A stretch of DNA of 34,441 bases from a virus. Every line of letters begins with the position of its first letter. The first letter of the stretch is position 1. The stretch lies in the UHGV virus genome UHGV-0156988. One strand, 5' to 3'. A program made the position numbers and the translations under genes. The notes below the pieces were generated by a model. That model was not told where the DNA came from and did not search any database. It was given only the letters and a program-made list of their open reading frames with translations. Shown here one piece after another: positions 12,347 to 33,889 of the stretch.

Positions 12347-12379
12347 TTACCACAACGGTAACTATTACCACGGTGGTTA
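12347..12379 (+). promoter_or_regulatory. Two adjacent operator sites immediately upstream of terS
   Basis: TTACC-ACAAC-GGTAA 12347-12361 (perfect) and TTACC-ACGGT-GGTTA 12365-12379; second site overlaps terS start codon. Confidence 0.5.
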
Positions 12380-12975
12380 TGATGTCTGCTGAACCTAAAA
12401 CCTATAAACGCAAATCAACGCAATTTAAGCCACTAACAGCAATGCAGGAGGCTTATTGCCTGTCATACATCAAAACGCCTGAAAACCAGACTCAGGCAGC
12501 GATTAACGCAGGATTCTCCCCAAATACAGCGGCAGTTAAAGCCAGTGTCATGATGCGTGATGAACGCATTAAAAAACGGATTGCCGAGTTGATGGAGGAG
12601 CGCAACAAACGAATGCGCGTCAGTGCTGATTACGTTCTCATGCGCCTGGTGGAGATCGACCAGATGGACGTGATTGATATCCTCAACGACGATGGGAGTC
12701 TTAAGCCAATCCGCGAGTGGCCGAAAATATGGCGCACTACGCTTAGCGGCTTTGATCTGTCATCGACCATCATGAACATGAACGAGGATTCGATAGAGAC
12801 AATCCTCAAAAAAATTAAATGGCCTGACAAGGTGAAGAACCTCGAACTGATTGGCAAGCACGTCGATGTCAATGCATTCAAAGAACGCCTGGATGTTAAT
12901 GTGAATGTGACAATTGCTGATCGCATAGCGGCAGCCAGGAAGCGACTCAAAGAACGTCAGGATGGTAATCAGTGA
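12379..12975 (+). CDS. Terminase small subunit
   Basis: About 199 aa; immediately upstream of and overlapping terminase large subunit; start moved from ORF-track 12301 because a terminator and operators lie in that extension. Confidence 0.7.
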   Translation: MMSAEPKTYKRKSTQFKPLTAMQEAYCLSYIKTPENQTQAAINAGFSPNTAAVKASVMMRDERIKKRIAELMEERNKRMRVSADYVLMRLVEIDQMDVIDILNDDGSLKPIREWPKIWRTTLSGFDLSSTIMNMNEDSIETILKKIKWPDKVKNLELIGKHVDVNAFKERLDVNVNVTIADRIAAARKRLKERQDGNQ

Positions 12976-14447
12976 CAGATACAGCGTTATCTCCTGAAGA
13001 GCAGTTGATCGAGGATATTGCAGGGTTCACTCACGATCCGCTTGGCTATGCCCTCTATGCGTTCCCGTGGGGGGAAGAGGGGACTGAACTGGCACATGCC
13101 ACCGGCCCACATCAGTGGCAGGCTGATGCGTTCCGAGAGATACGTGATCACCTGCAGAATCCAGAGACGCGCTATCAGCCGCTTATGCTGGCACGCGCTT
13201 CTGGTCACGGTATTGGTAAATCCGCATTCATCTCAATGCTGATCAACTGGGGCATGTCCACTTGCGAGGATTGTAAGGTCGTGGTGACCGCCAACACCGA
13301 CAACCAGCTACGAACGAAGACCTGGCCGGAAATTATCAAGTGGTCGAACCTTGCCATCACGAAAGACTGGTTTACCTGTACCGCTACCGCGATGTACAGC
13401 AATGATCCTGGGCACGACAAGCGGTGGCGAGCTGACGCAATCCCCTGGTCTGAGCACAACACTGAGGCATTCGCCGGACTACACAACGAGCGCAAACGCA
13501 TCATCGTGGTTTTCGACGAAGCATCCAACATTGCCGATCTGGTGTGGGAGGTAGCAGAGGGTGCGCTGACGGACGAAGACACCGAAATCATCTGGGTGGC
13601 GTTCGGGAACCCGACGCGTAATACCGGGCGTTTCCGCGAATGTTTCCGCAAATATAAACACCGCTGGAAAACTGCGCAGATTGACAGCCGGACGGTGGAA
13701 GGCACCAACAAACAGCAGTTGCAGAAATGGGTTGATGACTACGGGGAAGACAGCGACTTCGTTAAAATCCGTGTGCGCGGCATATTCCCTGATGCATCTG
13801 AATTGCAGTTTATCCCTACCGGTCTTACTGACGAGGCAATGAAACGGGTGGTAACTGCTGCGCAGGTGGCACATGCTCCGGTGATAATCGGCGTTGACCC
13901 TGCATACTCCGGTGTTGATGACGCGGTGATATACCTGCGGCAGGGGCTGCACAGTAAGGTGCTGTGGACCGGCAACAAGACCACTGACGATCTGATTATG
14001 GCAAAGCGTATCGCTGACTTTGAAGACCAGTATCAGGCTGACGCGGTGTTCATCGACTTCGGTTACGGTACCGGGCTGAAGTCAATCGGTGACGGTTGGG
14101 GGCGCACATGGCAACTTGTTCCGTTCGGTGGTGCGTCCACTGACCCGCAGATGCTTAACAAGCGTGGGGAGATGTTCAACTCATGCAAGACATGGCTGAG
14201 GCTGGGCGGCATGCTGGATGACCAGGAAACAGCGGACGACCTGTCGGCGGCAGAGTACAAAGTTCGAGTGGACGGTAAAATCGTTATCGAACCGAAGGAA
14301 GATATCAAGGAGCGGCTTGGGCGTTCGCCGGGTAAAGGCGATGCGCTACTGCTGACGTTTGCGTTCCCTGTGTCTAAGCGTCTGCGAATTCCCGGGCAGC
14401 AGAACCAGCAAGGCAAGGCCATTACAGATTACGATCCCTATGCTTAA
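12972..14447 (+). CDS. Terminase large subunit
   Basis: 491 aa; Walker A-like ARASGHGIGKS and C-terminal nuclease region; GTG start overlapping terS stop. Confidence 0.88.
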   Translation: MTDTALSPEEQLIEDIAGFTHDPLGYALYAFPWGEEGTELAHATGPHQWQADAFREIRDHLQNPETRYQPLMLARASGHGIGKSAFISMLINWGMSTCEDCKVVVTANTDNQLRTKTWPEIIKWSNLAITKDWFTCTATAMYSNDPGHDKRWRADAIPWSEHNTEAFAGLHNERKRIIVVFDEASNIADLVWEVAEGALTDEDTEIIWVAFGNPTRNTGRFRECFRKYKHRWKTAQIDSRTVEGTNKQQLQKWVDDYGEDSDFVKIRVRGIFPDASELQFIPTGLTDEAMKRVVTAAQVAHAPVIIGVDPAYSGVDDAVIYLRQGLHSKVLWTGNKTTDDLIMAKRIADFEDQYQADAVFIDFGYGTGLKSIGDGWGRTWQLVPFGGASTDPQMLNKRGEMFNSCKTWLRLGGMLDDQETADDLSAAEYKVRVDGKIVIEPKEDIKERLGRSPGKGDALLLTFAFPVSKRLRIPGQQNQQGKAITDYDPYA

Positions 14448-14497
14448 TCCGTTAGCGGGGATAATGACGGAGACATCCTCTGGTGAGGATAAAACAA

Positions 14498-14517
14498 AGC
14501 CAGCTCATCGGCTGGCT
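14498..14517. terminator. Bidirectional terminator hairpin between convergent terL and 14538-14909 gene
   Basis: AGCCAGC-TCATCG-GCTGGCT hairpin; T-rich on minus strand; immediately followed by TGTGACATGTCACG at 14521-14534. Confidence 0.5.
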
Positions 14518-14537
14518 GTTTGTGACATGTCACGGTG

Positions 14538-14909
14538 TTATTGCTCGCTTAACTTCTGCTTCAGCAAGTAACCTTCAAGCATCCAGATTTTGTTTACAGC
14601 ATTCTGCCGGGCAATCTTCCGACCAATTTCCGCATCAAAGTTTTCCGGGCTTGCACAGGCGCTCTCTCCGGTGACGGTGAAGCCGTTGCGCAGCACCAGA
14701 ACGCAGAACGTCAGCAGAGAAAGTGATTCGTGCGGCTGGTAGTTTACCTCTCCGCCAGTATGTTTCGCTTTTATGGCTACGCCAAAGACACCATCTTCTG
14801 CTGTGAAATATGCCTCCTGAGCAATAATGCTCTCGATATGGTCTGGCGTAACGCGCGGCGCGGCTAAACCTTTAGCCTGAATTTCAGATTCAATGTCTTT
14901 GTCACTCAT
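14538..14909 (-). CDS. Hypothetical protein (possibly Gp49/Sf6 gp66-like family)
   Basis: 123 aa; reverse orientation to flanking late genes; SD AAGGTGAG; family call is a loose recollection. Confidence 0.5.
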   Translation of the reverse strand: MSDKDIESEIQAKGLAAPRVTPDHIESIIAQEAYFTAEDGVFGVAIKAKHTGGEVNYQPHESLSLLTFCVLVLRNGFTVTGESACASPENFDAEIGRKIARQNAVNKIWMLEGYLLKQKLSEQ

Positions 14910-14925: not shown

Positions 14926-14949
14926 AAAAAAATGCCCGGCGAACCGGGC
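14926..14949 (-). terminator. Rho-independent terminator between tRNA and 14538-14909 gene
   Basis: On minus strand GCCCGG-TTCG-CCGGGC followed by T7, which runs directly into the SD of the downstream gene. Confidence 0.5.
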
Positions 14950-15112
14950 GAACTGGAAGCAATGAGTTATGCCTTCCGTGGCTGTACTGGTTTACAGCAT
15001 GAAGTCATCGCAATGGCGTCCTGCTGTAAAAAGGGCGGTGATAGTCCTTCAAGGGAAACCATCACCGCCAAGCCCCTGGAACTTCTGGCATCACGGTCCT
15101 TAGGCGTGATTC

Positions 15113-15189
15113 TGGCGTGGCATGCAGGATTCGAACCTGCGACCAACCGCTTAGAAGGCGGTTGCTCTGTCCAACTGAGCTAATGCCAC
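15113..15189 (-). tRNA. tRNA-Arg, anticodon UCU
   Basis: 77-nt cloverleaf folded by hand: acceptor GTGGCAT/ATGCCAC, D-arm GCTC/GAGC, anticodon stem ACCGC/GCGGT with loop CTTCTAA, T-arm GCAGG-TTCGAAT-CCTGC, discriminator G, encoded CCA. Confidence 0.88.
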
Positions 15190-15511
15190 AACGCTGAGAG
15201 CACTTAGCCTGTTAAGGCGCCACACTTTGTCGCGGCTCCATAAATGCTCTCATCGTTGCACCCTCGTCTCTTCCGAGGCGTCACACCGAATCGCCGGGAT
15301 GGTGAATCCCCGTGCGCGGAATAAAACCGCTCGACTTGCACATTCCGGCTACCTGGTTCGTTTGCCCGAGCAAGGGAGGGTGCCCCTTAAACGTATCCAG
15401 ACCGCTATCGGCGCATGTGCCATACGCCGTACTGCTCAAAATAAAATCTCACTCCACCTGTTCAATTTAACGACAAGCCAGTCAGGTTAATAACAGGAAT
15501 GCACTCTCTGC

Positions 15512-15526
15512 TTACCTGAAAGGTAA
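15512..15526 (+). promoter_or_regulatory. Operator site upstream of virion operon
   Basis: Perfect TTACC-TGAAA-GGTAA about 90 nt upstream of the first virion gene. Confidence 0.45.
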
Positions 15527-15616
15527 TAATTCGTGCGTTAAATGTCAACTGCCTACGATAAATAAATCATATGTGGTTAAATTGGTAATAATTTAATTGC
15601 GTACGGAGTCATTGAT

Positions 15617-15837: not shown

Positions 15838-17517
15838 ATGGCGGAAACAACTAAAGAGCGATTGAACAAACAGTTCGCACAACTTGAAAGCGAGCGTCAG
15901 TCGTTCGAGCCGCACTGGCGCGAGTTGAGTGATTACATCAACCCGCGTGGTTCCCGCTTTCTGACTTCTGAGGTCAACCGTAACGATCGACGCAATACAC
16001 GCATTATTGATTCGACCGGGACTATGGCGGCGCGCACTCTCGCCAGCGGCATGATGTCAGGCATCACAAGCCCCGCGCGTCCGTGGTTTCGCCTGGCTAC
16101 GCCAGATCCTGAAATGATGGATTATGGCCCTGTTAAGTTGTGGCTTGAGGCGGTGCAGAACCGTATGAACGATATGTTCAATAAGTCGAATCTCTATCAG
16201 TCGCTGCCGCAGTTATACGGAAGCCTCGGCACATACAGCACTGGTGCAATGGCGGTGCTGGAGGATGACGAGGACATCATTCGCACAATGCCATTCCCGA
16301 TAGGCAGTTACTACCTGGCTAACTCACCTCGTGGCAGTGTGGACACCTGTTTTCGCAAGTTCTCTATGACTGTTCGTCAGCTTGTTCAGGAATTCGGACT
16401 AAATAACGTCAGCGAATCCGTAAAAAGCATGTGGGAAAGCGGCACCTACGAGAAGTGGATTGAAGTGATGCATTCGGTTTACCCGAACATTGACCGCGAT
16501 ACATCGAAGCTGGATAGCAAGAACAAGCCATTCAAATCGGTTTATTACGAGGTTGGTGGCGATAACGACAAGTTGTTGCGTGAGTCCGGATTCGATGAGT
16601 TTCCAATTATGGCTCCGCGCTGGGAAGTTAACGGCGAAGATGTTTATGGATCATCATGCCCGGGCATGTTGGCGCTTGGACCTGTTAAAGCATTGCAGCT
16701 TCTTCAGAAGCGCAAGTCGCAGTTGATTGATAAAGCCACCAATCCGCCGATGGTTGCTCCGACTTCCCTCAAGAATCAGCGCGCCTCCCTTCTTCCTGGC
16801 GACATCACGTATATCGATCAGATTACTGGTCAGGATGGTTTCAGGCCTGCTTATCTGGTTAACCCCAGTACAGCAGATCTGGTAGCAGACATTCAGGATA
16901 CTCGCCAAATCATTAACAGCGCCTACTTTGTCGATCTGTTCATGATGTTGCAGAACATTAATACCCGCTCGATGCCTGTTGAAGCGGTGATCGAAATGAA
17001 AGAAGAAAAACTTCTGATGTTGGGGCCGGTTCTGGAGCGTCTGAACGACGAATGTCTTAACCCTCTCATTGACCGCGCTTTCTCGATGATGGTGCGTAAA
17101 AACATGCTGCCGCCACCGCCTGACGCGATGGAAGGTATGCCCCTGAAGGTCGAATACATTTCCGTCATGGCTCAGGCGCAGAAGTCTATCGGCCTGTCCA
17201 GTCTGGCGTCCACGGTTAACTTCATTGGTCAACTTGCGAAAGCGAAACCAGAAGCTCTCGACAAGCTCAACGTTGATCAGGCGATCGATGCATTCGCTGA
17301 TATGTCCGGAGTGTCTCCAACCGTCATTGTTCCGCAGGAACAGGTTGAGCAGGCTCGCCAGCAACGGGCACAGCAGCAACAGCAGCAACAAATGATGGCG
17401 ATGGGGATGGCGGCGGCACAGGGTGCCAAGACGCTAAGCGAAGCTAAAACTTCGGATCCGAGTGTGTTGTCAGCTATGGCGAATGCAGTTAGTGGTCAGG
17501 GTGGGCAATCACAATGA
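15838..17517 (+). CDS. Portal / head-to-tail connector protein, T7 gp8-like
   Basis: 559 aa; N-terminal and Gln-rich C-terminal tail (QQRAQQQQQQQMMAMGMAAAQG) resemble T7 gp8 as recalled. Confidence 0.8.
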   Translation: MAETTKERLNKQFAQLESERQSFEPHWRELSDYINPRGSRFLTSEVNRNDRRNTRIIDSTGTMAARTLASGMMSGITSPARPWFRLATPDPEMMDYGPVKLWLEAVQNRMNDMFNKSNLYQSLPQLYGSLGTYSTGAMAVLEDDEDIIRTMPFPIGSYYLANSPRGSVDTCFRKFSMTVRQLVQEFGLNNVSESVKSMWESGTYEKWIEVMHSVYPNIDRDTSKLDSKNKPFKSVYYEVGGDNDKLLRESGFDEFPIMAPRWEVNGEDVYGSSCPGMLALGPVKALQLLQKRKSQLIDKATNPPMVAPTSLKNQRASLLPGDITYIDQITGQDGFRPAYLVNPSTADLVADIQDTRQIINSAYFVDLFMMLQNINTRSMPVEAVIEMKEEKLLMLGPVLERLNDECLNPLIDRAFSMMVRKNMLPPPPDAMEGMPLKVEYISVMAQAQKSIGLSSLASTVNFIGQLAKAKPEALDKLNVDQAIDAFADMSGVSPTVIVPQEQVEQARQQRAQQQQQQQMMAMGMAAAQGAKTLSEAKTSDPSVLSAMANAVSGQGGQSQ

Positions 17518-17810
17518 CAGATTACGAAGACGATCAACTGAAAGAAGAAAACGACCGTAAGCAACGTGACATGGCACAGCGTGAAATTGATGACATTCGC
17601 TTTGTCATGAGCAGTGAACAGGGGCGTCGCGTTGTCTGGTCGGTGCTGGAGAAAGGCCGTGTGTTTTCCGCTATCTCACCGATGGACGCTATGGCAATGG
17701 CATTTAATGAGGGGCAACGCAATCTGGCGCTGGAACTGTTTCAGCGCGTTATGGCGCATTGCCCTGAACAGTATTTGAAGATGGCCAAAGAGGCCAGTGA
17801 ACAGGAGTGA
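17514..17810 (+). CDS. Hypothetical protein
   Basis: 98 aa; ATGA overlap with portal stop. Confidence 0.5.
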   Translation: MTDYEDDQLKEENDRKQRDMAQREIDDIRFVMSSEQGRRVVWSVLEKGRVFSAISPMDAMAMAFNEGQRNLALELFQRVMAHCPEQYLKMAKEASEQE

Positions 17811-17812
17811 TC

Positions 17813-18508
17813 ATGAATTTATTTGAGCGTTTGCTGTATAGCCGTCTTTGCAATGAGCAACCAGTCGATGGTGGAGCAGCTCCGGCTGCGTCAGAACCGT
17901 CAGCGCCTGCAGGTGATAACCCTGCTCCAGTTGGTGATCCATCACAACAGGAAGGTGATAAGCCACAACCTGTTGCTGATGGCGATAAACCTGCTGATGA
18001 CAAAAAGCCTGAAAACGATAAGCAGGATGAAAAAAAGGACGGCGATAAACCAGATGGTGCGCCTGAGAAGTACGAGTTTCAGGCTGCCGAAGGCGTAGAG
18101 CTGGATACAGAAGCATTGAAGGAATTCGAGCCGGTGGCGCGAGAACTTAACCTGACCAACGAGCAAGCGCAAAAGCTGGTTGATGCTTATCCGAAGATTC
18201 TGGCAGGTGTTCAGCAGCGCCAGGCAGAAGCCTGGCAGAAAACAACCGAGCAGTGGGCTGCGGATGTAAAAGCTGACAAAGAAATCGGTGGCGACAAGTT
18301 GATTTCTAACCTTAGCGCCGCACAGCGTGCGCTTGACCAGTTCGGGACACCTGAACTCAAAGAATATCTGAACACCACCGGGCTGGGTAATCACCCTGAT
18401 CTGGTCAAAACGTTCGTGAAAATCGGAAAGGCGATGTCTGAAGATGGCATGGTCACCGGTGGTAATGAAGGCCAGCGTAGTGCGGCCGAAGTGCTCTATG
18501 GCAAATAA
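17813..18508 (+). CDS. Scaffolding protein candidate
   Basis: About 231 aa, acidic and Pro/Lys/Asp-rich N-terminus, helical C-terminus; between portal and capsid genes; SD CAGGAG. Confidence 0.5.
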   Translation: MNLFERLLYSRLCNEQPVDGGAAPAASEPSAPAGDNPAPVGDPSQQEGDKPQPVADGDKPADDKKPENDKQDEKKDGDKPDGAPEKYEFQAAEGVELDTEALKEFEPVARELNLTNEQAQKLVDAYPKILAGVQQRQAEAWQKTTEQWAADVKADKEIGGDKLISNLSAAQRALDQFGTPELKEYLNTTGLGNHPDLVKTFVKIGKAMSEDGMVTGGNEGQRSAAEVLYGK

Positions 18509-18516
18509 GAGAGGAA

Positions 18517-19509
18517 ATGACAATGGCTGTTAAAGGCTTAACTGCGCTAACGCTGGCTGACTGGGGTAAGCGCGTCGATCCAAACGGGAAAGTCGATAAG
18601 ATTATCGAGCTTCTCGGTCAAACTAACCCGATCCTTCAGGATATGCCTTTTGTCGAAGGGAACCTTCCTACCGGACACCGAACCACCATTCGTTCTGGTT
18701 TACCTTCAGCTACCTGGCGTTTGCTGAACTATGGCGTACAGCCAAGCAAATCAACCACAGTGCAGGTAACCGATTCCGTTGGCATGCTGGAAACCTATGC
18801 TGAAGTCGATAAATCACTGGCTGATCTGAACGGCAATACCGCTGAATTCCGCCTGTCTGAAGACCGCGCATTTATTGAAGCGATGAATCAGCAGATGGCG
18901 CAGACGCTGTTTTATGGTGATTCCAGCGTTAACCCTCAGCAGTTTATGGGACTGTCCTCCCGCTATTCCAGCCTGTCTGCGGGTAATGCTCAGAACATCA
19001 TTGATGCTGGTGGCACGGGTACAGATAACACCTCAATCTGGTTAGTGGTGTGGGGCGAAAACACCGTGCATGGCATCTTCCCGAAAGGGAAGAAGGCTGG
19101 CATCCAGATGGAAGATAAAGGCCAGGTGACACTGGAAGATGCTAATGGCGGCAAGTACGAAGGCTATCGCACCCATTACAAATGGGACAACGGACTTGCT
19201 CTGCGTGACTGGCGTTATGTTGTTCGCATTGCAAACATCGATGTCAGCAATCTTTCAGAACCTTCCTCTGCCGCAAATATTGCGAAGTTGATGGTTAAAG
19301 CACTGCATCGCATTCCAAACCGTGGAATGGGTCGCCCGGTGTTCTACATGAACCGCACTGTATGCCAGGCTCTTGATCTGCAATCTCTGGAGAAAACATC
19401 TCTGGCGATCAGCGTAAAAGAGACAGAAGGCGAGTGGTGGACTTCATTCCGTGGTGTACCAATCCGTGAAACTGATGCGCTTCTGGAAACAGAAGCCCGT
19501 GTGGTGTAA
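18517..19509 (+). CDS. Major capsid protein
   Basis: 330 aa after scaffold-like gene, SD GAGAGGAA; followed by stem-loop and strong terminator downstream. Confidence 0.65.
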   Translation: MTMAVKGLTALTLADWGKRVDPNGKVDKIIELLGQTNPILQDMPFVEGNLPTGHRTTIRSGLPSATWRLLNYGVQPSKSTTVQVTDSVGMLETYAEVDKSLADLNGNTAEFRLSEDRAFIEAMNQQMAQTLFYGDSSVNPQQFMGLSSRYSSLSAGNAQNIIDAGGTGTDNTSIWLVVWGENTVHGIFPKGKKAGIQMEDKGQVTLEDANGGKYEGYRTHYKWDNGLALRDWRYVVRIANIDVSNLSEPSSAANIAKLMVKALHRIPNRGMGRPVFYMNRTVCQALDLQSLEKTSLAISVKETEGEWWTSFRGVPIRETDALLETEARVV

Positions 19510-19560
19510 CGCCTGTTATTAACCAGTGGGTCTGTTACGACCCACTAATGGAGAAAGAAG

Positions 19561-19998
19561 ATGATCACCGACAAACTGTTGATGTTCTCCGAAGCACAGG
19601 CGGTAACTGATACCGCGGCTTCTACTGACGTAATCGATCTAGGTCCAATTGATGGAAATCGTCGCGATATCGGCGTGGGTTACCCGCTTGAGTTTTGGGC
19701 GCTGGTTAACGAAGCCGCCACGGCAAGTGGTGAGGCAACTGTAAACATCCAGTTGCAGACGAGTGAGAATAACAGCTCATGGTCCACTATTTATGATAGT
19801 GGCGCACTGGCAAAGGCTACCCTGACAGCAGGTAAACGAGTTGTTTCTGCAAAGGTGCCTGCCGGTGTTCAGCGATATCTGCGTGTTAACTACTCCGTCG
19901 CAACTGGCCCACTAACGGCCGGCAAATTCACTGCGGGTATTAGTCTGGATGTTGATGCCAATACACCGTACCCGATCCGCTCAAAAGTAACTGGTTAA
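19561..19998 (+). CDS. Hypothetical virion protein (possible capsid decoration protein)
   Basis: 145 aa, Thr/Ala/Gly-rich, directly after capsid gene with SD GGAGAAAG. Confidence 0.45.
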   Translation: MITDKLLMFSEAQAVTDTAASTDVIDLGPIDGNRRDIGVGYPLEFWALVNEAATASGEATVNIQLQTSENNSSWSTIYDSGALAKATLTAGKRVVSAKVPAGVQRYLRVNYSVATGPLTAGKFTAGISLDVDANTPYPIRSKVTG

Positions 19999-19999
19999 G

Positions 20000-20344
20000 G
20001 TGATTTCGATGTCAGGTGAGAAACCAAGATACCGCGTTCTGCGCCTCTCTCATATCCATAACACACTGTGGCCGGAGGGGGCAGAAATCGAATACGAAGG
20101 TGAGCCTGGTAGCGCACTGGAACCTGTTAACGATGCAGCCAGACAGGCAAAAGCAAAGGTAGCAGGAAAGGTGACTATGGCAGCAACCAGCACCAAAATC
20201 ATCAACGATGTGTCAGATGATGGTGAACTGGATAAGCTCCGTGAAGAGTACGAATTGCTCTTTAGCGAGAAGCCACACCATAACGCCAAAGCCGAAACGC
20301 TCCGCGAGAAGATCGCAGATAAGCGTAAAGAACTTGGCGTGTAA
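20000..20344 (+). CDS. Hypothetical protein
   Basis: 114 aa with charged helical C-terminus; followed by strong terminator. Confidence 0.45.
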   Translation: MISMSGEKPRYRVLRLSHIHNTLWPEGAEIEYEGEPGSALEPVNDAARQAKAKVAGKVTMAATSTKIINDVSDDGELDKLREEYELLFSEKPHHNAKAETLREKIADKRKELGV

Positions 20345-20360
20345 GCCTCGCGAATCAGAC

Positions 20361-27316: not shown

Positions 27317-29115
27317 GTTACTTTGGCCTTAATCCAGTAAACCAGAATCAGCAGCTTGACGAAGCAGCATCAAATCCAGCTGGCTTTAACAGCGATGTTG
27401 GTTTTTTCGACAATGCTGTAGGAGCGGCATTGTCTGGTTTGTACTCCGGGCTGGTGGCAAAGCCAGATCAGTTGCTATGGGCAGGGATGGATAAAATCGT
27501 ATCCCCGATTGCTCAGTTTGTTAACGAAAACACCTCGCTCAATGACACTTCAGTTTCATACATTGCTGAGCAGAGAAAACTAGCAGAGCAGCAGGTTAAG
27601 CGGCTGACGCCTGATGCCGCGACAACCGGAACCGCCGGGCAGGTCCTTTATGGGTTGTTCGATATGGGCGGGCAGGCTGTTGTTGGTACAACGCTCGGTG
27701 GTCCGGTCGGAGGTGCTGCGGCGGTAACTTCGCTACAGGGTTTTTCTGAGTTTGAACGGCTGACAGCACAGGGTGTTGATTTCAGGACGGCGCAGGAAGC
27801 GGGATTAGTGCAGGGTATTACTGCTGGTGCCGGAACACTGATCCCTATGAGCCTCGGGTTACGTGCTGGTGGTGCGCTGGCGGAAGGTGTGGCGGCTCAG
27901 CTTGCGCGGACGGGTGAAAGTTCAGTGCGACGCGCCGCAGCAACAGCAGTACGTGCAACGCCAGATATTGCCTATGCCGCAGGTACAAATATTGCGTTCG
28001 GTATGGCACAGCGTGGGCTTACTGCAAAAACGCTTCGTGATGGTGGCTATAGCGAAATGGCTAATCAGTATGATGTGTTGGATCGACAGGCAATTGCTAT
28101 TGATGCTGTTCTTGGAGTGGCGTTTGGTGGTGTCGGCAGATTTATTAACTCTCGCGGCGAGTCTACAAGCGCACCAAATTTTTCACCAGTTGATGTCGAT
28201 GCTGCACTGGCGGCGAATGCCGCTCATCATGCTGAAATTGATATTGCTCCCGGTGTGCCGATCAACGTGCTTTCGCGTAATTCGCACATTCAGGCTCTGC
28301 GAAAAGCCATGTCTGATGTTAGCCAGGGGATACCTGTAGACGTTGCCAGCATTGTTGAGTCTGCATCTTTCAGTGAAATTCCTGGGCGCAAGAGTCTGCT
28401 TTCTCAGGCAGTTAATGAGGCTCTGTCATCTGTAGATGATGGAGTAACGGCGCGCGCTATAGAAAATCGGTTGCTTGAAGAACAGGCCGCGCAGCTTTTG
28501 CCGCGTGGCGATAGACAGGTTTACCAGTCTGAAATCGCTAATAGCCAACGAATTATTGAAAATCTCACTGAACAGCGCGCACAAATTCTTGCAGAAGAGC
28601 CAACCGGTAGCGGTAAAGCTTTGTCTCGTGCTCGATCAGATAAACAGGCCAGACTTCGCGATATTGATCAACGAATCCGGCAGGCACAAGAACGCCTGGA
28701 GTTTTCCCGTAACGCGTTGGCACCGCACGAGCCTGGCGGTCAGTTTTTTGAAGCTCGAGCAGAACTGGCACGACGACAGCAGGCAGAAAGTGAACTTAAT
28801 GCTCAGGCTGTTTCATTCTATAAAACAGCAGAGGTCAGGACGCCAGACGAAGTAGCTCCTTTTGAGCCCGGTAAGATATTGCAACAGACAGAACAAAAAA
28901 TGATGGCAGATCCGGCAGGAGATATTGATCTGCGTATAGCTGAAGACTCGCTGCTTGAATCTCCGGACATGATAATCACCGTGCTGGATGATGATGGTAA
29001 TCCACAATCGCGCAGTGCGCGTGAAGTACTGGATGAAGCGAACAGGGAAAGTGAGCAGGCAATACAGGATTCCAGCCTGTTTGATGTTGCTGTGGCGTGT
29101 TTCTTGAGAGGTTAA
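27313..29115 (+). CDS. Internal virion / ejection protein (possible N-terminal part of a split gp16 analogue)
   Basis: 600 aa; ATGA overlap with upstream gene; Ala/Gly-rich N-terminal half. Confidence 0.5.
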   Translation: MSYFGLNPVNQNQQLDEAASNPAGFNSDVGFFDNAVGAALSGLYSGLVAKPDQLLWAGMDKIVSPIAQFVNENTSLNDTSVSYIAEQRKLAEQQVKRLTPDAATTGTAGQVLYGLFDMGGQAVVGTTLGGPVGGAAAVTSLQGFSEFERLTAQGVDFRTAQEAGLVQGITAGAGTLIPMSLGLRAGGALAEGVAAQLARTGESSVRRAAATAVRATPDIAYAAGTNIAFGMAQRGLTAKTLRDGGYSEMANQYDVLDRQAIAIDAVLGVAFGGVGRFINSRGESTSAPNFSPVDVDAALAANAAHHAEIDIAPGVPINVLSRNSHIQALRKAMSDVSQGIPVDVASIVESASFSEIPGRKSLLSQAVNEALSSVDDGVTARAIENRLLEEQAAQLLPRGDRQVYQSEIANSQRIIENLTEQRAQILAEEPTGSGKALSRARSDKQARLRDIDQRIRQAQERLEFSRNALAPHEPGGQFFEARAELARRQQAESELNAQAVSFYKTAEVRTPDEVAPFEPGKILQQTEQKMMADPAGDIDLRIAEDSLLESPDMIITVLDDDGNPQSRSAREVLDEANRESEQAIQDSSLFDVAVACFLRG

Positions 29116-29120
29116 ATTAA

Positions 29121-31595
29121 ATGAGACAGGAATGTATACAAGCGGTCCAGCAGGCGGCGCAGCGCACGTTAACGGCGCGAGAAATACAGAACATTGAAGA
29201 CCGCATTTATCGAAATATGCGCTCCATTGCTCGTGATGACCCGATGTCGTGGCGACAACTTTCCGAATCAGAACGGTTGTATCGTGCAGCACAATTGGCA
29301 TCTGAAGAATTACAGCGAGAAGCGGCATTAAAGAAACGTCGTGTGGCCCTCACTATAGCCGCACGTCAGAGATTGGATAAATTTATCAATAGCTATCAAG
29401 GGGCTGATGGGAAACTTGGCGCTCTTAACCGTACTATTGCTTTTAATGCAGACGGTAAATCGAATTTCCTCTCTGTTGAATCCAGAACAAAAGCCACCCG
29501 TGATTATGCATTGAGTCAATTGCAGGAGGCATTCGAAGCAGTTGATCCTCGCTTTTTTGGTCTGTTTGAAGATGAAGCGGGCGTACGTGACCTGGTATAT
29601 GAAATGCGGGGGCAAAATACTGGCAATGCTAAAGCAAGAAAAGGTGCTAAGGCGTGGAGAGAAGTTACAGAGCTGCTGCGCCGCCGGTTTAATGATGCTG
29701 GTGGGGACATTGGCTATCTCGAAAACTGGGGGATCCCTCAACATCATTCTATGGAAAAGGTTGGGGCGGTATCAAAAGATAAATGGGTTAGCGATGTTAT
29801 AGGTAAGCTGGATCGCAAATATTATACCCGAGCCGATGGACAACTGATGAACGATGCCGAGTTGTCTGCATTTCTTGGAGAGGCTTATAACACGATCGCT
29901 ACTGGTGGGCTGAATAAGCTTACTGATACCGGAATGCGAATTTCCGGCGCACGTGCTAACCGTGGTAATGCATCACGACAGATACATTTCAAAGATGCAG
30001 ATTCCTATCTGCAATATCAGCAACTTTATGGCGATCGCTCTCTATGGGAAATCATGGTCGGTCACCTTGAAGGTATCAGTAAAGATATTGCACTGGTGGA
30101 AACATATGGCCCAAACCCCGATCATGTTTTCCGCTCTCTTCTTGATCAGGTGAAGGCAGAAACGGCAACAGCTAACCCGAGTAAAACCGGTAAAGTCGAG
30201 CGGCTGGCGAACAACACAGAGAATCTGTACAACTTTATTTCCGGAAAGACACAGCCTGTAGCGAATCCGCACATCGCGCGATGGTCTGACAATATCCGCA
30301 ACTGGCTGGTTGCCAGCAGACTCGGATCCGCGTTGCTGTCATCGTTCTCTGATCTTGGAACCATGTATCTGTCTGCGAAGGTTACCAACCTTCCAATGAA
30401 CCAGTTATTCCGCAACCAGCTTGAAGCTATGGACCCAACGAACCGTACAGAACTTGCGCGGGCGCGCCGCGCTGGTCTGGCGATGGAATCTCTACTTGGC
30501 AGCGTTAACCGCTGGGCGATGGATAATATGGGGCCGTCTGTGTCTCGTTGGGCTGCAACGGCGGTAATGCGTGCCAGTGGGCTTACAGCATGGTCAGATG
30601 CGCACAAGCGCGCCTATGGCGTAACCATGATGGGAAGCCTGGGAGAAGTAGTGTCACGGACACCAGACCTTCGTAGCCTCGATGATTCTGATTTTCGTAT
30701 CCTGAAAAGCAAAGGGATTACTGACACAGACTGGAGCGTATGGAAGCTGGCGCAACAGGAGGACTGGGGGAACGGCAATAATACGATGCTGACACCGGAA
30801 AGCATTATGCGTATCCCTGATTCAGCAGTTAAACATCTTGGTGAGCCTGAACGCGTGAAATTTGAGGCAATGCGTAAACTGCTCGGTGCCGTAACTGAAG
30901 AAGTTGATATGGCTGTTATTACACCGGGAGCACGTGAGCAACTGATAACCGGTTCTGGTATTCAGCGTGGAACATGGAAAGGTGAATTAACGAGAAGTGT
31001 TTTCCTGTTTAAATCGTTCCCTATCTCGGTGGTTATGCGTCACTGGTCACGCGCTATGGGTATGCCGTCTGCTGGTGGGCGTGCGGCATATATTGCGACG
31101 TTTATTGCCAGTACGACCATTCTTGGCGCTTTGTCGCAGCAACTTAACGACCTTGCGTCTGGTCGTAATCCTCGCGAGATGACAGGAGAAGATGCTGCTA
31201 AATTTTGGCTTGGTGCTCTACTGAAAGGTGGTGGTCTTGGCCTTTACGGTGACTTTTTATTGTCAGATCACACTAGGTACGGAAGCGGCGCGCTGGCGTC
31301 GATGCTTGGCCCGGTAGCTGGTCTGGTTGATGACGTAGTGAAGATTGCTCAGGGCATACCGTTAAATGCTGTGGAAGGGAAGAGTGAGCAGACTGGTGGT
31401 GATCTGGTGAAGCTGGGGAAAGGTTTGATGCCAGGTGCGAATCTCTGGTACTTAAAGGCGGCTCTCGATCATATGATCTTTAACCAGATGCAGGAGTATT
31501 TTTCACCAGGCTATTTGCGTAAAATGGAGCAACGTTCGAAGAAAGAGTTTAACCAGACATACTGGTGGCGACCTCAGGATGTCACTCCGCAATAA
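29121..31595 (+). CDS. Internal virion / ejection protein (possible C-terminal part of a split gp16 analogue)
   Basis: 824 aa; last large gene before tailspike. Confidence 0.5.
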   Translation: MRQECIQAVQQAAQRTLTAREIQNIEDRIYRNMRSIARDDPMSWRQLSESERLYRAAQLASEELQREAALKKRRVALTIAARQRLDKFINSYQGADGKLGALNRTIAFNADGKSNFLSVESRTKATRDYALSQLQEAFEAVDPRFFGLFEDEAGVRDLVYEMRGQNTGNAKARKGAKAWREVTELLRRRFNDAGGDIGYLENWGIPQHHSMEKVGAVSKDKWVSDVIGKLDRKYYTRADGQLMNDAELSAFLGEAYNTIATGGLNKLTDTGMRISGARANRGNASRQIHFKDADSYLQYQQLYGDRSLWEIMVGHLEGISKDIALVETYGPNPDHVFRSLLDQVKAETATANPSKTGKVERLANNTENLYNFISGKTQPVANPHIARWSDNIRNWLVASRLGSALLSSFSDLGTMYLSAKVTNLPMNQLFRNQLEAMDPTNRTELARARRAGLAMESLLGSVNRWAMDNMGPSVSRWAATAVMRASGLTAWSDAHKRAYGVTMMGSLGEVVSRTPDLRSLDDSDFRILKSKGITDTDWSVWKLAQQEDWGNGNNTMLTPESIMRIPDSAVKHLGEPERVKFEAMRKLLGAVTEEVDMAVITPGAREQLITGSGIQRGTWKGELTRSVFLFKSFPISVVMRHWSRAMGMPSAGGRAAYIATFIASTTILGALSQQLNDLASGRNPREMTGEDAAKFWLGALLKGGGLGLYGDFLLSDHTRYGSGALASMLGPVAGLVDDVVKIAQGIPLNAVEGKSEQTGGDLVKLGKGLMPGANLWYLKAALDHMIFNQMQEYFSPGYLRKMEQRSKKEFNQTYWWRPQDVTPQ

Positions 31596-31604: not shown

Positions 31605-31781
31605 GTGTTTTTAATTATTTTGAGTGTGATAATTTCTGGTGGGTTGTTATTTATTGACCGCTACAAATATTTTCTTAACCCTCAGACTCAAGCTATTTGC
31701 TGGTTCATCTTTGTTGTGCAGGGAATAGTTCTTGTTGCAAGCCTTATTGAGGGGAGGCCTCTGATTTTTACTGGGTAAATA
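31605..31781 (+). CDS. Small hydrophobic peptide, two predicted TM segments
   Basis: Not in ORF track; GTG 31605 (or 31626) after AGGAAG; about 58 aa, almost entirely hydrophobic. Confidence 0.25.
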
Positions 31782-31790
31782 GGTGACTAC

Positions 31791-32087
31791 ATGCAAGCTA
31801 TAGGATTCATTGTTTATATCGTCGTTGGTCTTTTTCAGTTGGCAGCAATTATGGCTGGGCTTGAATCATGGTGGGGATTGCACTGGATAATTGCAGCCCC
31901 CATTGCTTTCATCGTGAGCTATATTCCATTTGTTGGAGCGATTGTTGGTATGGTTGGCGCTGTGGATGTATGGCGGTGGGAGTGGTGGCAGGCTGGCCTT
32001 CTCTTCTTTGGTGGGATCATCTTTGCTATTGTCTGCGGTGGAATGTCATCATTTTTCGAATGGCTATCATTCAGAAAAAGAGCGTGA
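31791..32087 (+). CDS. Small integral membrane protein, three predicted TM segments
   Basis: 98 aa, SD AGGTGA; Gly/Ile/Val/Trp-rich hydrophobic stretches with basic C-terminus FRKRA. Confidence 0.6.
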   Translation: MQAIGFIVYIVVGLFQLAAIMAGLESWWGLHWIIAAPIAFIVSYIPFVGAIVGMVGAVDVWRWEWWQAGLLFFGGIIFAIVCGGMSSFFEWLSFRKRA

Positions 32088-32095
32088 CATGTCAC

Positions 32096-32113
32096 AGGCC
32101 GCTCTTGCGGCCT
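32096..32113. terminator. Bidirectional terminator hairpin between convergent genes
   Basis: AGGCCGC-TCTT-GCGGCCT; TTTAAATTT on plus side, CTCTTTTTCT on minus side; abuts GTGACATGTCAC at 32084-32095. Confidence 0.55.
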
Positions 32114-32377: not shown

Positions 32378-32397
32378 CTTAATCTTCTCCATGCAAT

Positions 32398-32417
32398 AAC
32401 TGTATATTTATACAGTA
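32398..32417 (-). promoter_or_regulatory. LexA (SOS) box
   Basis: Plus-strand AACTGTATATTTATACAGTA: CTGT-N8-ACAG with AT-rich spacer, one or two mismatches from TACTGTATATATATACAGTA. Confidence 0.7.
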
Positions 32418-32454
32418 GCAAATAATTTGTTTGCTATCCAGCACGTTTTGCAAA

Positions 32455-32469
32455 TTACCAGAAAGGTAA
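32455..32469 (+). promoter_or_regulatory. Operator site upstream of tailspike gene
   Basis: Perfect TTACC-AGAAA-GGTAA between the LexA-controlled gene and the tailspike gene. Confidence 0.45.
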
Positions 32470-32575
32470 TATCTATTCGTATCCATAGTTTTTCTATGCA
32501 TATATGGTTTTTCAGGTAATAGAATGGATGGGACTGCATGCGCGATGGGCGCACAAGCTATCCGGAGATAATGAC

Positions 32576-33889
32576 ATGACGGTCTCAACCGAAGTCGACC
32601 ATAACGAATACACCGGGAATGGCGTCACGACGATATTCCCTTATACCTTCAGAATTTTTCAGAAGTCTGATCTGGTTGTTCAGGTTGTAGACCTGGATGA
32701 AAACTTGACAGTATTGACACTTGATACAGATTACACGGTAACTGGTGCAGGCGGTTACGCTGGTGGGAATGTCACCCTGACGACAGCGCTCGTAAGCGGT
32801 TACCAGATATCTATATCTCGAGAGCTTCCAGTTACCCAGGAAACAGATCTTCGCAATCAGGGTAAGTTCTTTGCAGAAGTTCATGAGGATGCTTTTGATA
32901 AACTGACAATGCTGATCCAACAGGTTCGCAGCTGGTTTAGCCTTGCGCTTCGTAAACCATCATTTATTGCAAACTATTATGATGCGCTGAACAATTACAT
33001 TCGTAATCTAAGAGACCCAGAAAGGCCTCAAGATGCAGCAACCAGAAACTATGTTGATACAGTATCAACGGCAAACCTCAATCGAACACTTCGTACGCCT
33101 GAACCTATCCCAGAACTACCTGGAGTTGAAGAGCGTAAAAATAAACTTGTTGCTATGGATGATTCTGGTAATCCTATTATGGTATTGCCTGAATCAGGAT
33201 CTGCATCGGATGTTCTCATTGAACTTGCCAAGCCAACTGGGGCAGGGTTGATAGGCATTAAACCAGGAGGAAATGTTCAACAAGCGCTATATTACGTTAC
33301 TCCCGAACAGTTCGGGGCAATCGGAGATGGCACTCTTCATCTATTATCAGAAAAATATTCTACCCTAACTGACGCGCAGTCAGTGTATCCGCTTGCAACA
33401 AGTTTGTCTCAGTCAATTGATTGGGCTGCTATGCAAACAGCTGATAGTGTTGCTCGAGAATTAAAATGTTCGGTCCGTTGTCCAACGTTGAAAAAATACA
33501 GATTCTCATCCCTTGACACGTTAATGCTGGATATCGACAGTTGCTTTATTGGCGGTCCGCAATCTGATCATTTGCATGGGACAATGATAATCAAAGACAA
33601 ACCACCGGTGACAGCATCAACAAATATTGGCGATATCTGCATAGTCAAGGTCAAAAAGGCTTCCGACACTGTATCAACCAATGGATTTGTCAATGGAGTG
33701 GTATTCCAGGGTTTTTCTCTTGAGTGGGCAAATGTTGCGTGGATGTCCGCTGTTAAAGGTGATTTGTCAATTTGCCTTCATATGAACGATGCGATCAAAG
33801 CAAAAGTAGACGTCAGCGTATGGGGCGGGGAATTTGGGGTATACGGGTATGGCTGCTGGGGAATGGTTGGTACTTTGCCGAATGCATGA
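32576..33889 (+). CDS. Tailspike / tail fibre protein with T7 gp17-like N-terminal adaptor; probably 3-prime truncated
   Basis: Start at ATG 32576 (SD GGAG); N-terminal NEYTGNGVTTIFPYTF motif; later PEQFGAIGDG region suggests start of a beta-helix; only 438 aa and ends at a junction with unrelated sequence. Confidence 0.65.
   Translation: MTVSTEVDHNEYTGNGVTTIFPYTFRIFQKSDLVVQVVDLDENLTVLTLDTDYTVTGAGGYAGGNVTLTTALVSGYQISISRELPVTQETDLRNQGKFFAEVHEDAFDKLTMLIQQVRSWFSLALRKPSFIANYYDALNNYIRNLRDPERPQDAATRNYVDTVSTANLNRTLRTPEPIPELPGVEERKNKLVAMDDSGNPIMVLPESGSASDVLIELAKPTGAGLIGIKPGGNVQQALYYVTPEQFGAIGDGTLHLLSEKYSTLTDAQSVYPLATSLSQSIDWAAMQTADSVARELKCSVRCPTLKKYRFSSLDTLMLDIDSCFIGGPQSDHLHGTMIIKDKPPVTASTNIGDICIVKVKKASDTVSTNGFVNGVVFQGFSLEWANVAWMSAVKGDLSICLHMNDAIKAKVDVSVWGGEFGVYGYGCWGMVGTLPNA

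Follow-up and report, generated by a model that had tools for sequence, protein, structure and literature searches.

An epsilon15/phiV10-type prophage in a gut-metagenome contig, joined within its tail-spike gene to Sutterella DNA

The window (the whole 34,441-nucleotide stretch analysed here, UHGV-0156988, a gut-metagenome contig) is the left ~34 kb of a temperate podovirus prophage of the epsilon15/phiV10 type (genus Uetakevirus). The element is of a kind already known, an ordinary, well-described E. coli prophage of the epsilon15/phiV10 group. Taken as a whole, the evidence makes it very probable that this is a Uetakevirus prophage at guaA whose lysis cassette has been cut off by a chimera and whose late genes are controlled without Q. 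The window is ~97% identical to Escherichia phage phiV10, the O157 typing phages 9 and 10, phiv142-3 and PAS61. In its late region, 91-92% of the sequence aligns to phiV10, typing phages 9 and 10 and phiv142-3 with 97.2-97.7% identity, and epsilon15 aligns with 76% nucleotide identity; the early region is a mosaic of phiV10-group phages (72-79% covered). A first-pass annotation had described a mosaic of lambda-like early genes and T7-like virion genes. That description is right, but the mosaic is a known genus and not a new element: lambda-like early genes with a T7-like tail are the published hallmark of Uetakevirus.

The window follows the genus plan, which combines a lambdoid-style early part (integrase, RecT/exonuclease, repressor/cro, DnaT-type initiator, lambda-P loader) with a late part made up of a P22/Sf6-type terminase, a T7 gp8-family portal and an epsilon15/BPP-1-type head, followed by the adaptor, nozzle, internal virion proteins and tail spike, a module for tail and ejection that is distantly homologous to T7 gp11-gp17. 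The prophage sits in E. coli at the guaA 3' end; int lies beside guaA in every case among the E. coli genomes examined. The attL core ATTGAGTGGGAATGATT overlaps the guaA stop codon and lies outside the window, 142-158 nt to the left of position 1.

The P4-type tyrosine integrase (50-1306, plus strand; Pfam Arm-DNA-bind_3, Phage_int_M and Phage_integrase) is followed by a leftward block of early genes on the minus strand (1309-5074). Pfam and PHROGs assign these to a NinI-like Ser/Thr phosphatase (1309-2088), an MT-A70 methyltransferase (1965-2627), a PerC-like activator (2608-2907), an AlpA/excisionase-like protein (3017-3265), RecT (3315-4283) and a PDDEXK RecE-like exonuclease (4253-5074). 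The immunity region (5544-6648, both strands) contains a two-HTH repressor (5679-6263, minus strand), a cro-like gene (6418-6648, plus strand) and, by motif search, operator motifs of the form ATTACC-N5-GGTAAT at 5544, 5606 and 6318. To its right, on the plus strand, lie a replication initiator with DnaT-domain/HTH_36 character (7015-7830; Pfam DnaT, 1.1e-15) and a lambda-P-family helicase loader (7812-8612; Pfam Phage_lambda_P, 2.2e-56), with two further operator motifs 3' of them (8649 and 8711). Pfam and PHROGs thus bear out the P4-type integrase, the NinI-like phosphatase and the lambda-P homologue of the first-pass annotation; its Red-beta-like protein is RecT instead, and its lambda O-like protein carries a DnaT domain outside the O family.

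The listed open reading frames of the virion module are all present at the sizes given (559, 233, 330, 201/202, 823, 154, 181, 837, 600 and 824 aa). Packaging begins with the terminase small subunit (ATG at 12379, end at 12975, plus strand) and large subunit (12972-14447, plus strand; Terminase_2 family), the pair matching phrog_51 and phrog_2. Both are of P22/Sf6 type, not T7 type, and neither BLASTP nor phmmer finds similarity to T7 gp18 or gp19. A minus-strand ORF (14538-14909) lies 3' of terL and is followed by a tRNA-Arg (anticodon TCT; 15113-15189, minus strand; ARAGORN), which the annotations of O157 typing phages 9 and 10 list too. The 559-aa portal protein (15838-17517, plus strand) matches PF12236 at 4.8e-187, the Pfam family to which T7 gp8 also belongs (2.8e-113), and PDB 8CK0 at 5.5e-179. 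The head module (17807-20718, plus strand) is of the epsilon15/BPP-1 type. It comprises a 233-aa protein (17807-18508) that is scaffold-like on inspection of its sequence, 'protease' being a database label, the 330-aa major capsid protein (18517-19509; PF20911 GP7, 2.3e-149), a Bbp16-like cement protein (19561-19998; PF21190 Bbp16, 3.1e-48), a 114-aa protein with no assigned function (20000-20344) and a Gp10-like decoration protein (20389-20718; precomputed Pfam Gp10-like). None of these matches the T7 scaffold and capsid families in Pfam.

The 201-aa tail adaptor (tubular protein A; 20715-21323, plus strand) was assigned from its AF2 model (pLDDT 85), for which Foldseek returns the Carin-1 connector (8CK1_E, TM 0.82) and T7 gp11 (7BOX_M, E 4.4e-6, TM 0.57-0.59); the modelled likeness to gp11 is at the level of the fold only. 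The 823-aa tail nozzle (tubular protein B; 21323-23794, plus strand) matches the 'Tail Nozzle' of PDB 8CK1_A at 4.7e-217 and phrog_376, and epsilon15 gp12 is homologous to T7 gp12 by HMM-HMM comparison (PMC4819975). The internal virion (ejection) proteins of 154, 181, 837, 600 and 824 aa (23794-31595, plus strand) match PHROGs internal virion protein and transglycosylase families. The 154-aa protein occupies the gp13 position, the 181-aa protein exceeds the cut-off of the T7 gp14 family (PF24072, 2.9e-7) and the lytic transglycosylase is located in the 837-aa protein (PHROGs; note in the epsilon15 record). The proposal of a gp16 analogue split into 600 + 824 aa holds for the second part: in published profile work the 824-aa protein alone is the homologue of T7 gp16 (IVP-D), and the 600-aa protein is, with the 837-aa protein, a candidate for the gp15 position (PMC4819975).

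The T7 likeness of the late module is therefore remote. The gene order of T7 gp8-gp17 is shared (portal, scaffold position, capsid, adaptor and nozzle, then three to four internal virion proteins and a fibre or spike), as are the portal and gp14 Pfam families, which are the only two common to the window and T7, the gp11 fold of the adaptor and, from the literature, nozzle and gp16-type homology (PMC4819975). Pairwise sequence similarity is absent: BLASTP and phmmer against T7 gp8-gp19 give zero significant pairs, the gp13 (E 0.07) and gp17 N-terminal domain (E 0.023) matches are sub-threshold, and none of the Pfam models for T7 capsid, scaffold, Tube, nozzle and SLT finds a match in the window. 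Unlike in T7, the capsid (GP7 family), cement, decoration, scaffold and terminase proteins belong to other families, the terminase genes lie 5' of the portal gene (3' of the fibre gene in T7), the transglycosylase sits in the gp15-position protein, and the element has no phage RNA polymerase and is temperate.

How the late genes might be switched on is suggested by the distribution of the operator motif. Nine copies of ATTACC-N5-GGTAAT were found where 0.03 are expected; three lie in the immunity region, where they flank the repressor gene, two follow P, two precede terS, and the head operon and the tail spike are preceded by one each. The epsilon15 record annotates the same motif as repressor sites at equivalent places. 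The regulatory gap 5' of the packaging genes (12257-12380, plus strand), whose layout is shared with epsilon15, contains a first copy of the palindrome GTGACATGTCAC (12257-12268) overlapping the stop codon of a 112-aa regulator, an intrinsic terminator (12310-12335) and two operator motifs (12346-12362 and 12364-12380). Single motifs stand upstream of the head operon (CTTACCTGAAAGGTAAT, 15511-15527, plus strand) and, as a perfect copy with an equivalent annotated in epsilon15, upstream of the tail-spike gene (ATTACCAGAAAGGTAAT, 32454-32470, plus strand). At least three late units, terS-terL, head to ejection proteins and tail spike, thus each have the motif in front. Neither Q nor N antiterminator families were detected in the window (Pfam, PHROGs, NCBIfam); the window truly lacks Q, as is usual for the genus. 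In the simplest mechanism, the prophage repressor would control the late promoters directly, in place of Q-type antitermination; we infer this from the positions of the motifs and the annotation by the epsilon15 depositors. No convincing sigma-70 promoter was found beside the terS operators, and the strong terminator between the regulator gene and terS is not needed by a model with the repressor only.

That terminator, 40 nt past the palindrome of the regulator gene, invites another explanation, in which the 112-aa regulator (11922-12260, plus strand) replaces Q by binding the GTGACATGTCAC palindromes at terminators and permitting RNA polymerase coming from the early-right operon to run on into terS and further. 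The protein is a homologue of epsilon15 gp49 and phiV10 gp55 (phrog_536, 1.6e-54); in alignments its N-terminal helix is basic, one segment is a putative ribbon-helix-helix, and four cysteines (C79, C82, C91, C93) form a conserved cluster. Its gene is the last of the rightward early operon and always the last before terS, with its stop codon inside the palindrome. Three perfect palindromes occur where 0.1 are expected, each between a gene end and a terminator. The second (14522-14533) lies beside a terminator hairpin (14498-14517), both between terL and the minus-strand ORF 14538-14909. The third (32084-32095) overlaps the stop codon at the end of the small membrane protein genes and is followed by an intrinsic terminator (32096-32113). 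The palindromes are kept at equivalent places in epsilon15, only 76% identical overall, and in myovirus ZF40 a palindrome lies directly 3' of the homologous gene; two of the three in the window, however, close late units rather than precede them. The best three PDB matches of the gp49-like profile are all RNA-polymerase-binding DksA/TraR zinc-finger proteins, yet insignificant (E 0.05-0.08), and the AF2 model is unusable (pLDDT 53). The regulator has no Pfam or NCBIfam match, falls outside every Q family and shows no similarity to any of them, and its N15 homologue, gp46, lies in the middle of the early region of a phage that has a separate late transcription activator, gp40. We consider a Q-like role of the regulator unlikely and favour direct control by the repressor.

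Profile searches (Pfam, PHROGs, NCBIfam) detect no holin, endolysin or spanin in the window, and no match is obtained when lysis proteins from phiV10, epsilon15 and one intact E. coli prophage serve as tblastn queries, in agreement with the first-pass annotation, which had recognised no Q, holin, endolysin or Rz/Rz1. In the genus, the cassette (two membrane/holin proteins, a GH19 endolysin, Rz/Rz1) comes 3' of the tail-spike gene and of a gene for O-antigen modification, at the far right beside attR. In phiV10 it occupies 24812-26609, after the tail fibre (20996-23623) and oac and before int; epsilon15 has the same layout, and in the intact E. coli prophage NZ_CP148445 an 868-aa tail fibre is followed by an acyltransferase, two holins, GH19, a DUF2514 spanin and then yfgI. 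The cassette is missing from the window because the phage sequence ends in the middle of the tail-spike gene, at 33876/33877. It is barely credible that the window contains instead an unrecognised lysis system, with the two small membrane proteins (57 and 98 aa; 31605-32087, plus strand) as holins and the 837-aa virion transglycosylase as lysin. The small proteins are hydrophobic (two and three segments, respectively) and the 837-aa protein has matches in PHROG families that bear endolysin or transglycosylase labels. However, the only family matches of the small proteins are phrog_3075 (function unknown) and a sub-threshold Pfam holin match of the 98-aa protein (E 0.027; 15 bits against a family cut-off of 29), the transglycosylase lies among the internal virion protein genes, whose products act at entry in T7-like phages (PMC4819975), and relatives with these small genes and the 837-aa protein also have a complete canonical cassette elsewhere.

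The tail-spike gene (32576-33876, plus strand) is present for its first 433 codons only, the ORF itself running to 33889. These encode the conserved N-terminal particle-binding domain (first 230-252 aa, sharing 78-82% identity with the tail fibres of phiV10 and CP148445) and the start of a rare receptor-binding domain (33288-33874, which matches codons 155-350 of the phage C1 tail fibre, a 676-aa protein, at 84% identity). The spike thus ends at about codon 350 of this homologue, and ~330 codons are absent. The remaining DNA (33877-34441, minus strand) is the N-terminal half and upstream region of a Sutterella wadsworthensis DUF3737 gene, with its start codon near 34289 and a match to profile positions 3-137 out of 275 of PF12541 (1.6e-50). 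It is 100% identical to S. wadsworthensis DSM 14016 over 564 nt (33877-34440), has a GC content of 56.8% against 44.3% in the tail-spike gene and, from 33,890 onwards, is absent from 5,426 complete E. coli genomes and 50,697 phage records. An att site or a prophage end with host flank was considered for the junction and rejected, two genes being cut in mid-frame. The phage sequence does break off as had been noticed, but the true host flank, E. coli guaA, lies on the opposite side.

Two source contigs bear on the origin of the junction. ERZ507880 NODE_88 is identical to the window and continues in line with the Sutterella genome, with which it is collinear over 1,573 nt (99.87%). Assembly ERZ19693276 carries guaA, int and the remaining prophage up to the identical junction, past which it has only 218 nt of Sutterella DNA and then 87 nt identical to a third genome, this last piece being absent from the 5,426 complete E. 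coli genomes. The two assemblies come from different assemblers and differ by one base over 11.5 kb; since both contain the junction, at least some reads span it. Their agreement, and the guaA gene at the left of one of them, would suit a biological break in a decayed E. coli prophage in which a foreign patchwork has taken the place of the right arm (tail-spike C-terminus, O-antigen gene, lysis cassette, attR); such an element would be defective for adsorption and lysis. Against this, the contigs disagree after the first 218 nt (1.57 kb of Sutterella chromosome in one, a third, unrelated genome in the other), the Sutterella piece has type-strain identity and is cut mid-gene, both foreign pieces are missing from E. 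coli, coverage as read from the contig names is only ~6-7x, and chained short unrelated fragments are the typical appearance of ligation or amplification chimeras. We regard a biological break as quite improbable. The evidence points to a chimera from library preparation or assembly and not to a biological prophage end. Since the DNA beyond the junction is from Sutterella, the break is uninformative on the biology of the prophage. Of the two possibilities raised earlier, lysis genes beyond the junction would fit the phage family, with the cassettes of relatives 3' of the tail spike, although what lies there in this contig is Sutterella DNA, while a defect in lysis is unsupported.

The closest known systems are phiV10 (NC_007804), O157 typing phages 9 and 10, phiv142-3, PAS61, ZX5 and HEMP4, which match 87-92% of the late region at 97-98% nucleotide identity. 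They share the gene order from int to the tail-spike N-terminus, the tRNA-Arg, the guaA site and a gp55-like regulator before terS. The window differs from them in its early region, another mosaic (72-79% covered) in which RecT and the exonuclease have an ORF each and Ea22/DUF551 genes are additional, in a 98-aa membrane protein where they have a Bro-N anti-repressor between ejection genes and tail spike, in its distinct and rare receptor-binding part and in lacking the right arm. Salmonella phage epsilon15 (NC_004775), the Uetakevirus prototype, has the same architecture gene for gene, including the operator motif at early and late units and the palindrome-terminator modules, and its lysis cassette lies between the tail spike/serotype-conversion genes and attP; it differs in nucleotide sequence (~76% identity), host, O-antigen conversion genes and its 1070-aa tail spike. 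Lambda shares the early logic of repressor/cro, P-type helicase loader and NinI-like phosphatase, and a regulator gene followed by a terminator directly before the late genes. In contrast to lambda, the window has operator motifs before its late units and lacks N and any member of the three Pfam families of Q, and in the genus the lysis genes close the late region instead of opening it. The closest solved structures are the tail complex of Cobetia phage Carin-1 (PDB 8CK0/8CK1; portal 5.5e-179, nozzle 4.7e-217, connector 1.6e-26, fibre N-terminus 2.4e-27) and the head of Bordetella phage BPP-1, which shares the Bbp16 cement protein family; both phages differ in host and receptor-binding domains and are structural relatives only.

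By sequence, the element in the window is an ordinary phiV10-type Escherichia coli prophage of the genus Uetakevirus (the genus given for phiV10 and epsilon15 in the taxonomy lines of their annotated records), because it is closely identical to the phiV10 group, guaA stands next to its integrase and an att core lies at the guaA stop codon. In nucleotide comparison phiV10 matches the late region with 97.3% identity over 91% and the early region with 97.8% identity over 74%. At least 80% of the late region is covered by ten phage records; phiV10, the O157 typing phages 9 and 10 and phiv142-3 reach 91–92% coverage at 97.2–97.7% identity. Across the conserved late genes the window and the Salmonella phage epsilon15 are approximately 76% identical. 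Phages of the phiV10 group cover 72–79% of the early region, as a mosaic. The window reproduces the Uetakevirus gene order and is collinear with the annotated phiV10 and epsilon15 records (int, early genes, a regulator resembling epsilon15 gp49 and phiV10 gp55, terS, terL, portal, GP7 capsid, adaptor, nozzle, ejection proteins, tail spike). In a sister contig (ERZ19693276 k141_40174) guaA is found directly to the left of int, and in every E. coli chromosome carrying the identical integrase this gene adjoins guaA. The 17-nt att core, ATTGAGTGGGAATGATT, overlaps the guaA stop codon and lies 142–158 nt outside the window.

All ORFs reported in the first-pass annotation were present at the sizes it gave. 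Among the early genes, that of the P4-type integrase is accompanied by genes for a NinI-like phosphatase, an MT-A70 methylase and regulators resembling PerC and AlpA. The two-HTH repressor gene and a cro-like gene face each other, and replication is represented by an initiator with a DnaT domain and a loader of the lambda-P family. RecT and a PDDEXK exonuclease are encoded on the minus strand (3315–5074) by separate, slightly overlapping ORFs, whereas the phiV10 record has a single fused RecE–RecT protein; this difference is part of the early mosaicism. The late genes comprise terS, terL, portal, a scaffold-like protein, capsid, cement and decoration proteins, the 201-aa and 823-aa tail proteins, five internal proteins of large or small size, a pair of small membrane proteins and the tail-spike ORF. 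An NCBIfam search of ten key proteins gave no match. The structural operon is closed by two small hydrophobic proteins of 57 aa and 98 aa (31605–32087), possibly involved in superinfection exclusion; the gene for the latter occupies the slot of the Bro-N anti-repressor gene of phiV10. Within the late region a tRNA-Arg(TCT) gene (15113–15189, minus strand) is antisense to, and overlaps, an 83-aa ORF (14932–15183). This tRNA may explain why 64 Synechococcus phage records match the late-region query at 80–90% identity.

Phage sequence ends at 33876, inside the tail-spike gene (phage part 32576–33876). Positions 33877–34440 match Sutterella wadsworthensis DSM 14016 with 100% identity and cover the first half of a minus-strand DUF3737 gene (Pfam profile positions 3–137 of 275). 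At the junction the GC content changes from 44.3% to 56.8%, and the reading frames of the tail-spike gene and the DUF3737 gene are both interrupted there; the ‘461-aa tail spike’ takes its last four codons and its stop codon from Sutterella sequence read in antisense. Exact look-ups of the artefactual 180-aa and 461-aa ORFs returned no match, and that of the 437-aa version starting from the ATG at 32576 matched the source contigs. Sequence past 33,890 is absent from 5,426 complete E. coli genomes and from the phage collection. Exact searches of IMG/VR contigs and GTDB genomes found neither the junction nor the Sutterella segment.

The window is identical to part of the ENA contig ERZ507880 NODE_88 (58,440 nt). 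The first-pass annotation had allowed that the lysis genes might lie beyond the junction, but past the junction NODE_88 (extract L085, 11302–12874) runs collinear with the Sutterella chromosome, 1,573 nt at 99.87% identity. In the sister contig (40,822 nt) guaA and int are followed by the remaining prophage as far as the identical junction. Past this point (extract L086, 11301–11606) it has only 218 nt of Sutterella sequence, then 87 nt that agree perfectly with PPYE01000011.1, a third genome (GC 43%) that is absent from E. coli. Because an E. coli chromosome here gives way to a series of short segments from two other gut bacteria, all conserved perfectly, the junction is very probably an artefact, in which chimeric library fragments were extended differently by different assemblers. 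The recovery of the junction in two assemblies would also fit a real break in a decayed E. coli prophage, an explanation we regard as highly improbable. Real integration of the phage into Sutterella was rejected, since in the sister contig E. coli guaA stands beside the integrase, and the point at which both genes are broken lies away from any att site. In public metagenome contigs of this chimeric kind, joining E. coli prophage to Sutterella, boundary tools would call a provirus with host flank.

The truncated tail spike is itself unusual in its receptor-binding part. Between 33288 and 33874 it comes closest to the tail fibre of Escherichia phage C1 (Deseoctovirus), an unrelated phage, with 84% nucleotide identity; homology to phage tail fibres stops at 33874, which corresponds to roughly codon 350 of the 676-aa C1 fibre. 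Some 330 codons of the tail spike are missing. The tail fibres of the closer relatives match the window by tblastn over their first 230–252 residues only. The receptor-binding part is rare, with no close match in the 5,426 complete E. coli genomes, and a search for a full-length version of the domain gave only eight distant proteins. This pattern is consistent with a modular exchange of spike domains.

The same truncation accounts for the missing lysis genes. No family match above threshold was obtained in the window for a holin, a muralytic endolysin, Rz/Rz1 or a unimolecular spanin, and tblastn of the lysis proteins of phiV10, epsilon15 and an intact E. coli prophage against it gave matches at chance level only. 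In phiV10 the tail fibre (20996–23623) is followed by an O-acetyltransferase, the lysis cassette (membrane protein, holin, endolysin, Rz and Rz1; 24812–26609), attP and int, and the epsilon15 cassette is placed in the same way. The intact E. coli prophage encodes, in order, an 868-aa tail fibre, an acyltransferase, two holins, a GH19 endolysin and a DUF2514 spanin before host yfgI. As the layout is the same in the three relatives, in the prophage orientation the cassette is the last element before attR, 1–2 kb past the tail spike. The Uetakevirus right arm, with its O-antigen-modifying gene and the holin, GH19 endolysin and Rz/Rz1 genes next to attP/attR, is absent from the window because phage sequence ends at 33876. 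The first-pass annotation was therefore largely correct in what it observed and half right in its interpretation: lysis genes beyond the tail spike are the rule in this phage family, as the three relatives show, but the apparent lysis defect very probably belongs to the contig and not to the phage. The ‘prophage without lysis genes’ is a false lead: the phage part of the contig ends within the tail-spike gene.

The reported lack of a Q-like antiterminator is a usual trait of the genus. No early ORF matches a Q family (Pfam PF03589, PF06530, PF06323) or an N family in Pfam, PHROGs or NCBIfam, which confirms the observation for the window, and neither the phiV10 nor the epsilon15 record contains an annotated Q or antiterminator gene. 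Two features of the sequence relate to late control. ATTACC-N5-GGTAAT, the first, is found at nine sites when one mismatch is allowed, where 0.03 would be expected. Three sites flank the repressor gene (5544, 5606 and 6318) and two follow the P gene (8649 and 8711); two more stand immediately before the terS ATG (12346 and 12364), and the head operon (15511) and the tail spike (32454) are each preceded by one. At the equivalent places of epsilon15 this motif is annotated in the record as repressor-binding sites. The placement suggests direct repressor control of the late units; on the simplest reading, the late genes would be organized in several units, each controlled by the repressor itself. 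The terS start meant here is the ATG at 12379, which is more likely than the TTG at 12301 implied by the phiV10 annotation. If translation began at the TTG, two operator motifs and the terminator would fall within terS; in the longer ORF the PHROG match starts at residue 28, and the gene calls of the sister contigs give 197 aa.

The last early gene encodes the gp49/gp55-like regulator (112 aa, 11922–12260), homologous to epsilon15 gp49 and phiV10 gp55; the protein contains a cluster of conserved Cys residues and a putative ribbon-helix-helix segment. The stop codon of the gene is inside a perfect 12-bp palindrome, GTGACATGTCAC, and a strong intrinsic terminator (12310–12335) lies between the palindrome and terS. 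There are three perfect copies (12257–12268, 14522–14533 and 32084–32095) against 0.1 expected, and along the direction of transcription the order is always gene end, palindrome, terminator. The palindrome is kept at the three equivalent places in epsilon15, and in the Pectobacterium myovirus ZF40 it is found directly 3' of the gp49-like gene. A role as the –35 element of a PR'-like promoter was rejected: ZF40 does not preserve the –10-like sequence downstream, and neither of the other two copies faces a gene. The arrangement invites comparison with Q. The regulator, together with palindromes upstream of intrinsic terminators, could form a putative termination control that replaces Q in Uetakeviruses and is shared with unrelated phages such as ZF40. 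We consider this unlikely, as the family (154 cluster representatives in 1.84 billion proteins, from podo-, myo- and siphoviruses of Enterobacteria, Vibrio and Aeromonas) matches no Q family; 57 diverse members gave no Pfam match of any kind. The AF2 model of the regulator (pLDDT 53) is too poor for a fold search, and the top three matches of the family profile in the PDB, all DksA/TraR-type zinc-finger proteins (TraR, YbiI), are not significant (E 0.05–0.08). Phage N15, moreover, has a homologue (gp46) alongside a separate late activator, gp40. The phiV10/epsilon15 group is well used, in phiV10 reporter phages and epsilon15 structural work, and we found no published test of how its late genes are switched on; the conserved regulator–palindrome–terminator arrangement before the late genes is the one feature that may merit bench work.

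The first-pass annotation also described a T7-like virion module. In this it was partly right, although evidence at the sequence level is thin: gene order and the portal and gp14 families agree with T7, and the adaptor resembles its T7 counterpart in predicted fold. The order from portal to tail spike parallels T7 gp8–gp17, but BLASTP and phmmer comparison of the late proteins with T7 gp8–gp19 gave no significant pair. When T7's own proteins were run through Pfam and the results compared with the families of the window, only the portal (PF12236; 4.8e-187 in the window, 2.8e-113 for T7 gp8) and gp14 (PF24072; 31.0 bits in the window, cut-off 27) families were common to both. The T7 gp13 model (E 0.07) and the gp17 N-terminal fibre domain (PF03906; E 0.023, 14.8 bits against a cut-off of 25.2) remained sub-threshold in the window; in the PDB the tail spike weakly matched chain 8VBX_R, labelled ‘Tail fiber (gp47)’ (E 0.0054). 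The Pfam models for T7 scaffold (PF05396), capsid (PF21703, Gp10A-like), Tube, nozzle and SLT found no match. T7 gp9 and gp10 match their own families; the 233-aa protein of the window matches none, and the capsid of the window is PF20911 (GP7).

For the 201-aa adaptor, Pfam gave no match to Tube (PF17212) and hhalign no signal with T7 gp11, the adaptor alignment of only 30 sequences being too shallow. Its AF2 model (pLDDT 85) superimposes on the Carin-1 connector with a TM of 0.82 and matches T7 gp11 structures with E 4.4e-6, probability 1.00 and TM 0.57–0.59. Judged from the predicted model, the relation to gp11 is real at the level of the fold; it is not family membership by sequence. The nozzle had no PF25675 match in the window at E<0.1, and its nearest counterpart among solved proteins is the Carin-1 ‘Tail Nozzle’; HMM–HMM comparison is reported to show remote homology between epsilon15 gp12 and T7 gp12 (PMC4819975), which the Pfam search of the window does not reproduce. 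No sequence signal for T7 gp15 or gp16 was detected by Pfam, BLASTP or phmmer. The 837-aa protein does not match Pfam SLT, though PHROG transglycosylase families match it, and the lytic transglycosylase is also noted in the epsilon15 record. Published profile–profile work relates epsilon15 gp11, gp12, gp13, gp14 and gp17 to T7 gp11, gp12, gp13, gp14 and gp16, and makes epsilon15 gp15 and gp16 candidates for the T7 gp15 position (PMC4819975). Because of these assignments the proposed split of gp16 into 600 + 824 aa has to be revised: the 824-aa protein is the gp16 homologue, and the 837-aa and 600-aa proteins fill the gp15 position.

Other parts of the virion point away from T7. The head is of the epsilon15/BPP-1 kind, with GP7 capsid, Bbp16 cement and Gp10-like decoration proteins, and the terminase is of the P22/Sf6 kind and placed before the portal; the epsilon15 terminase and capsid group with those of siphoviruses (PMC4819975). 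The closest solved structures for portal, connector, nozzle and fibre are those of Cobetia phage Carin-1. Autographiviridae have their own single-subunit RNA polymerase and are strictly lytic, whereas the window has an integrase and a repressor instead, and none of its scanned ORFs matches an RNA polymerase family. The mosaic described in the first-pass annotation is thus nothing new; it is the textbook plan, already known, of epsilon15/phiV10-type phages.
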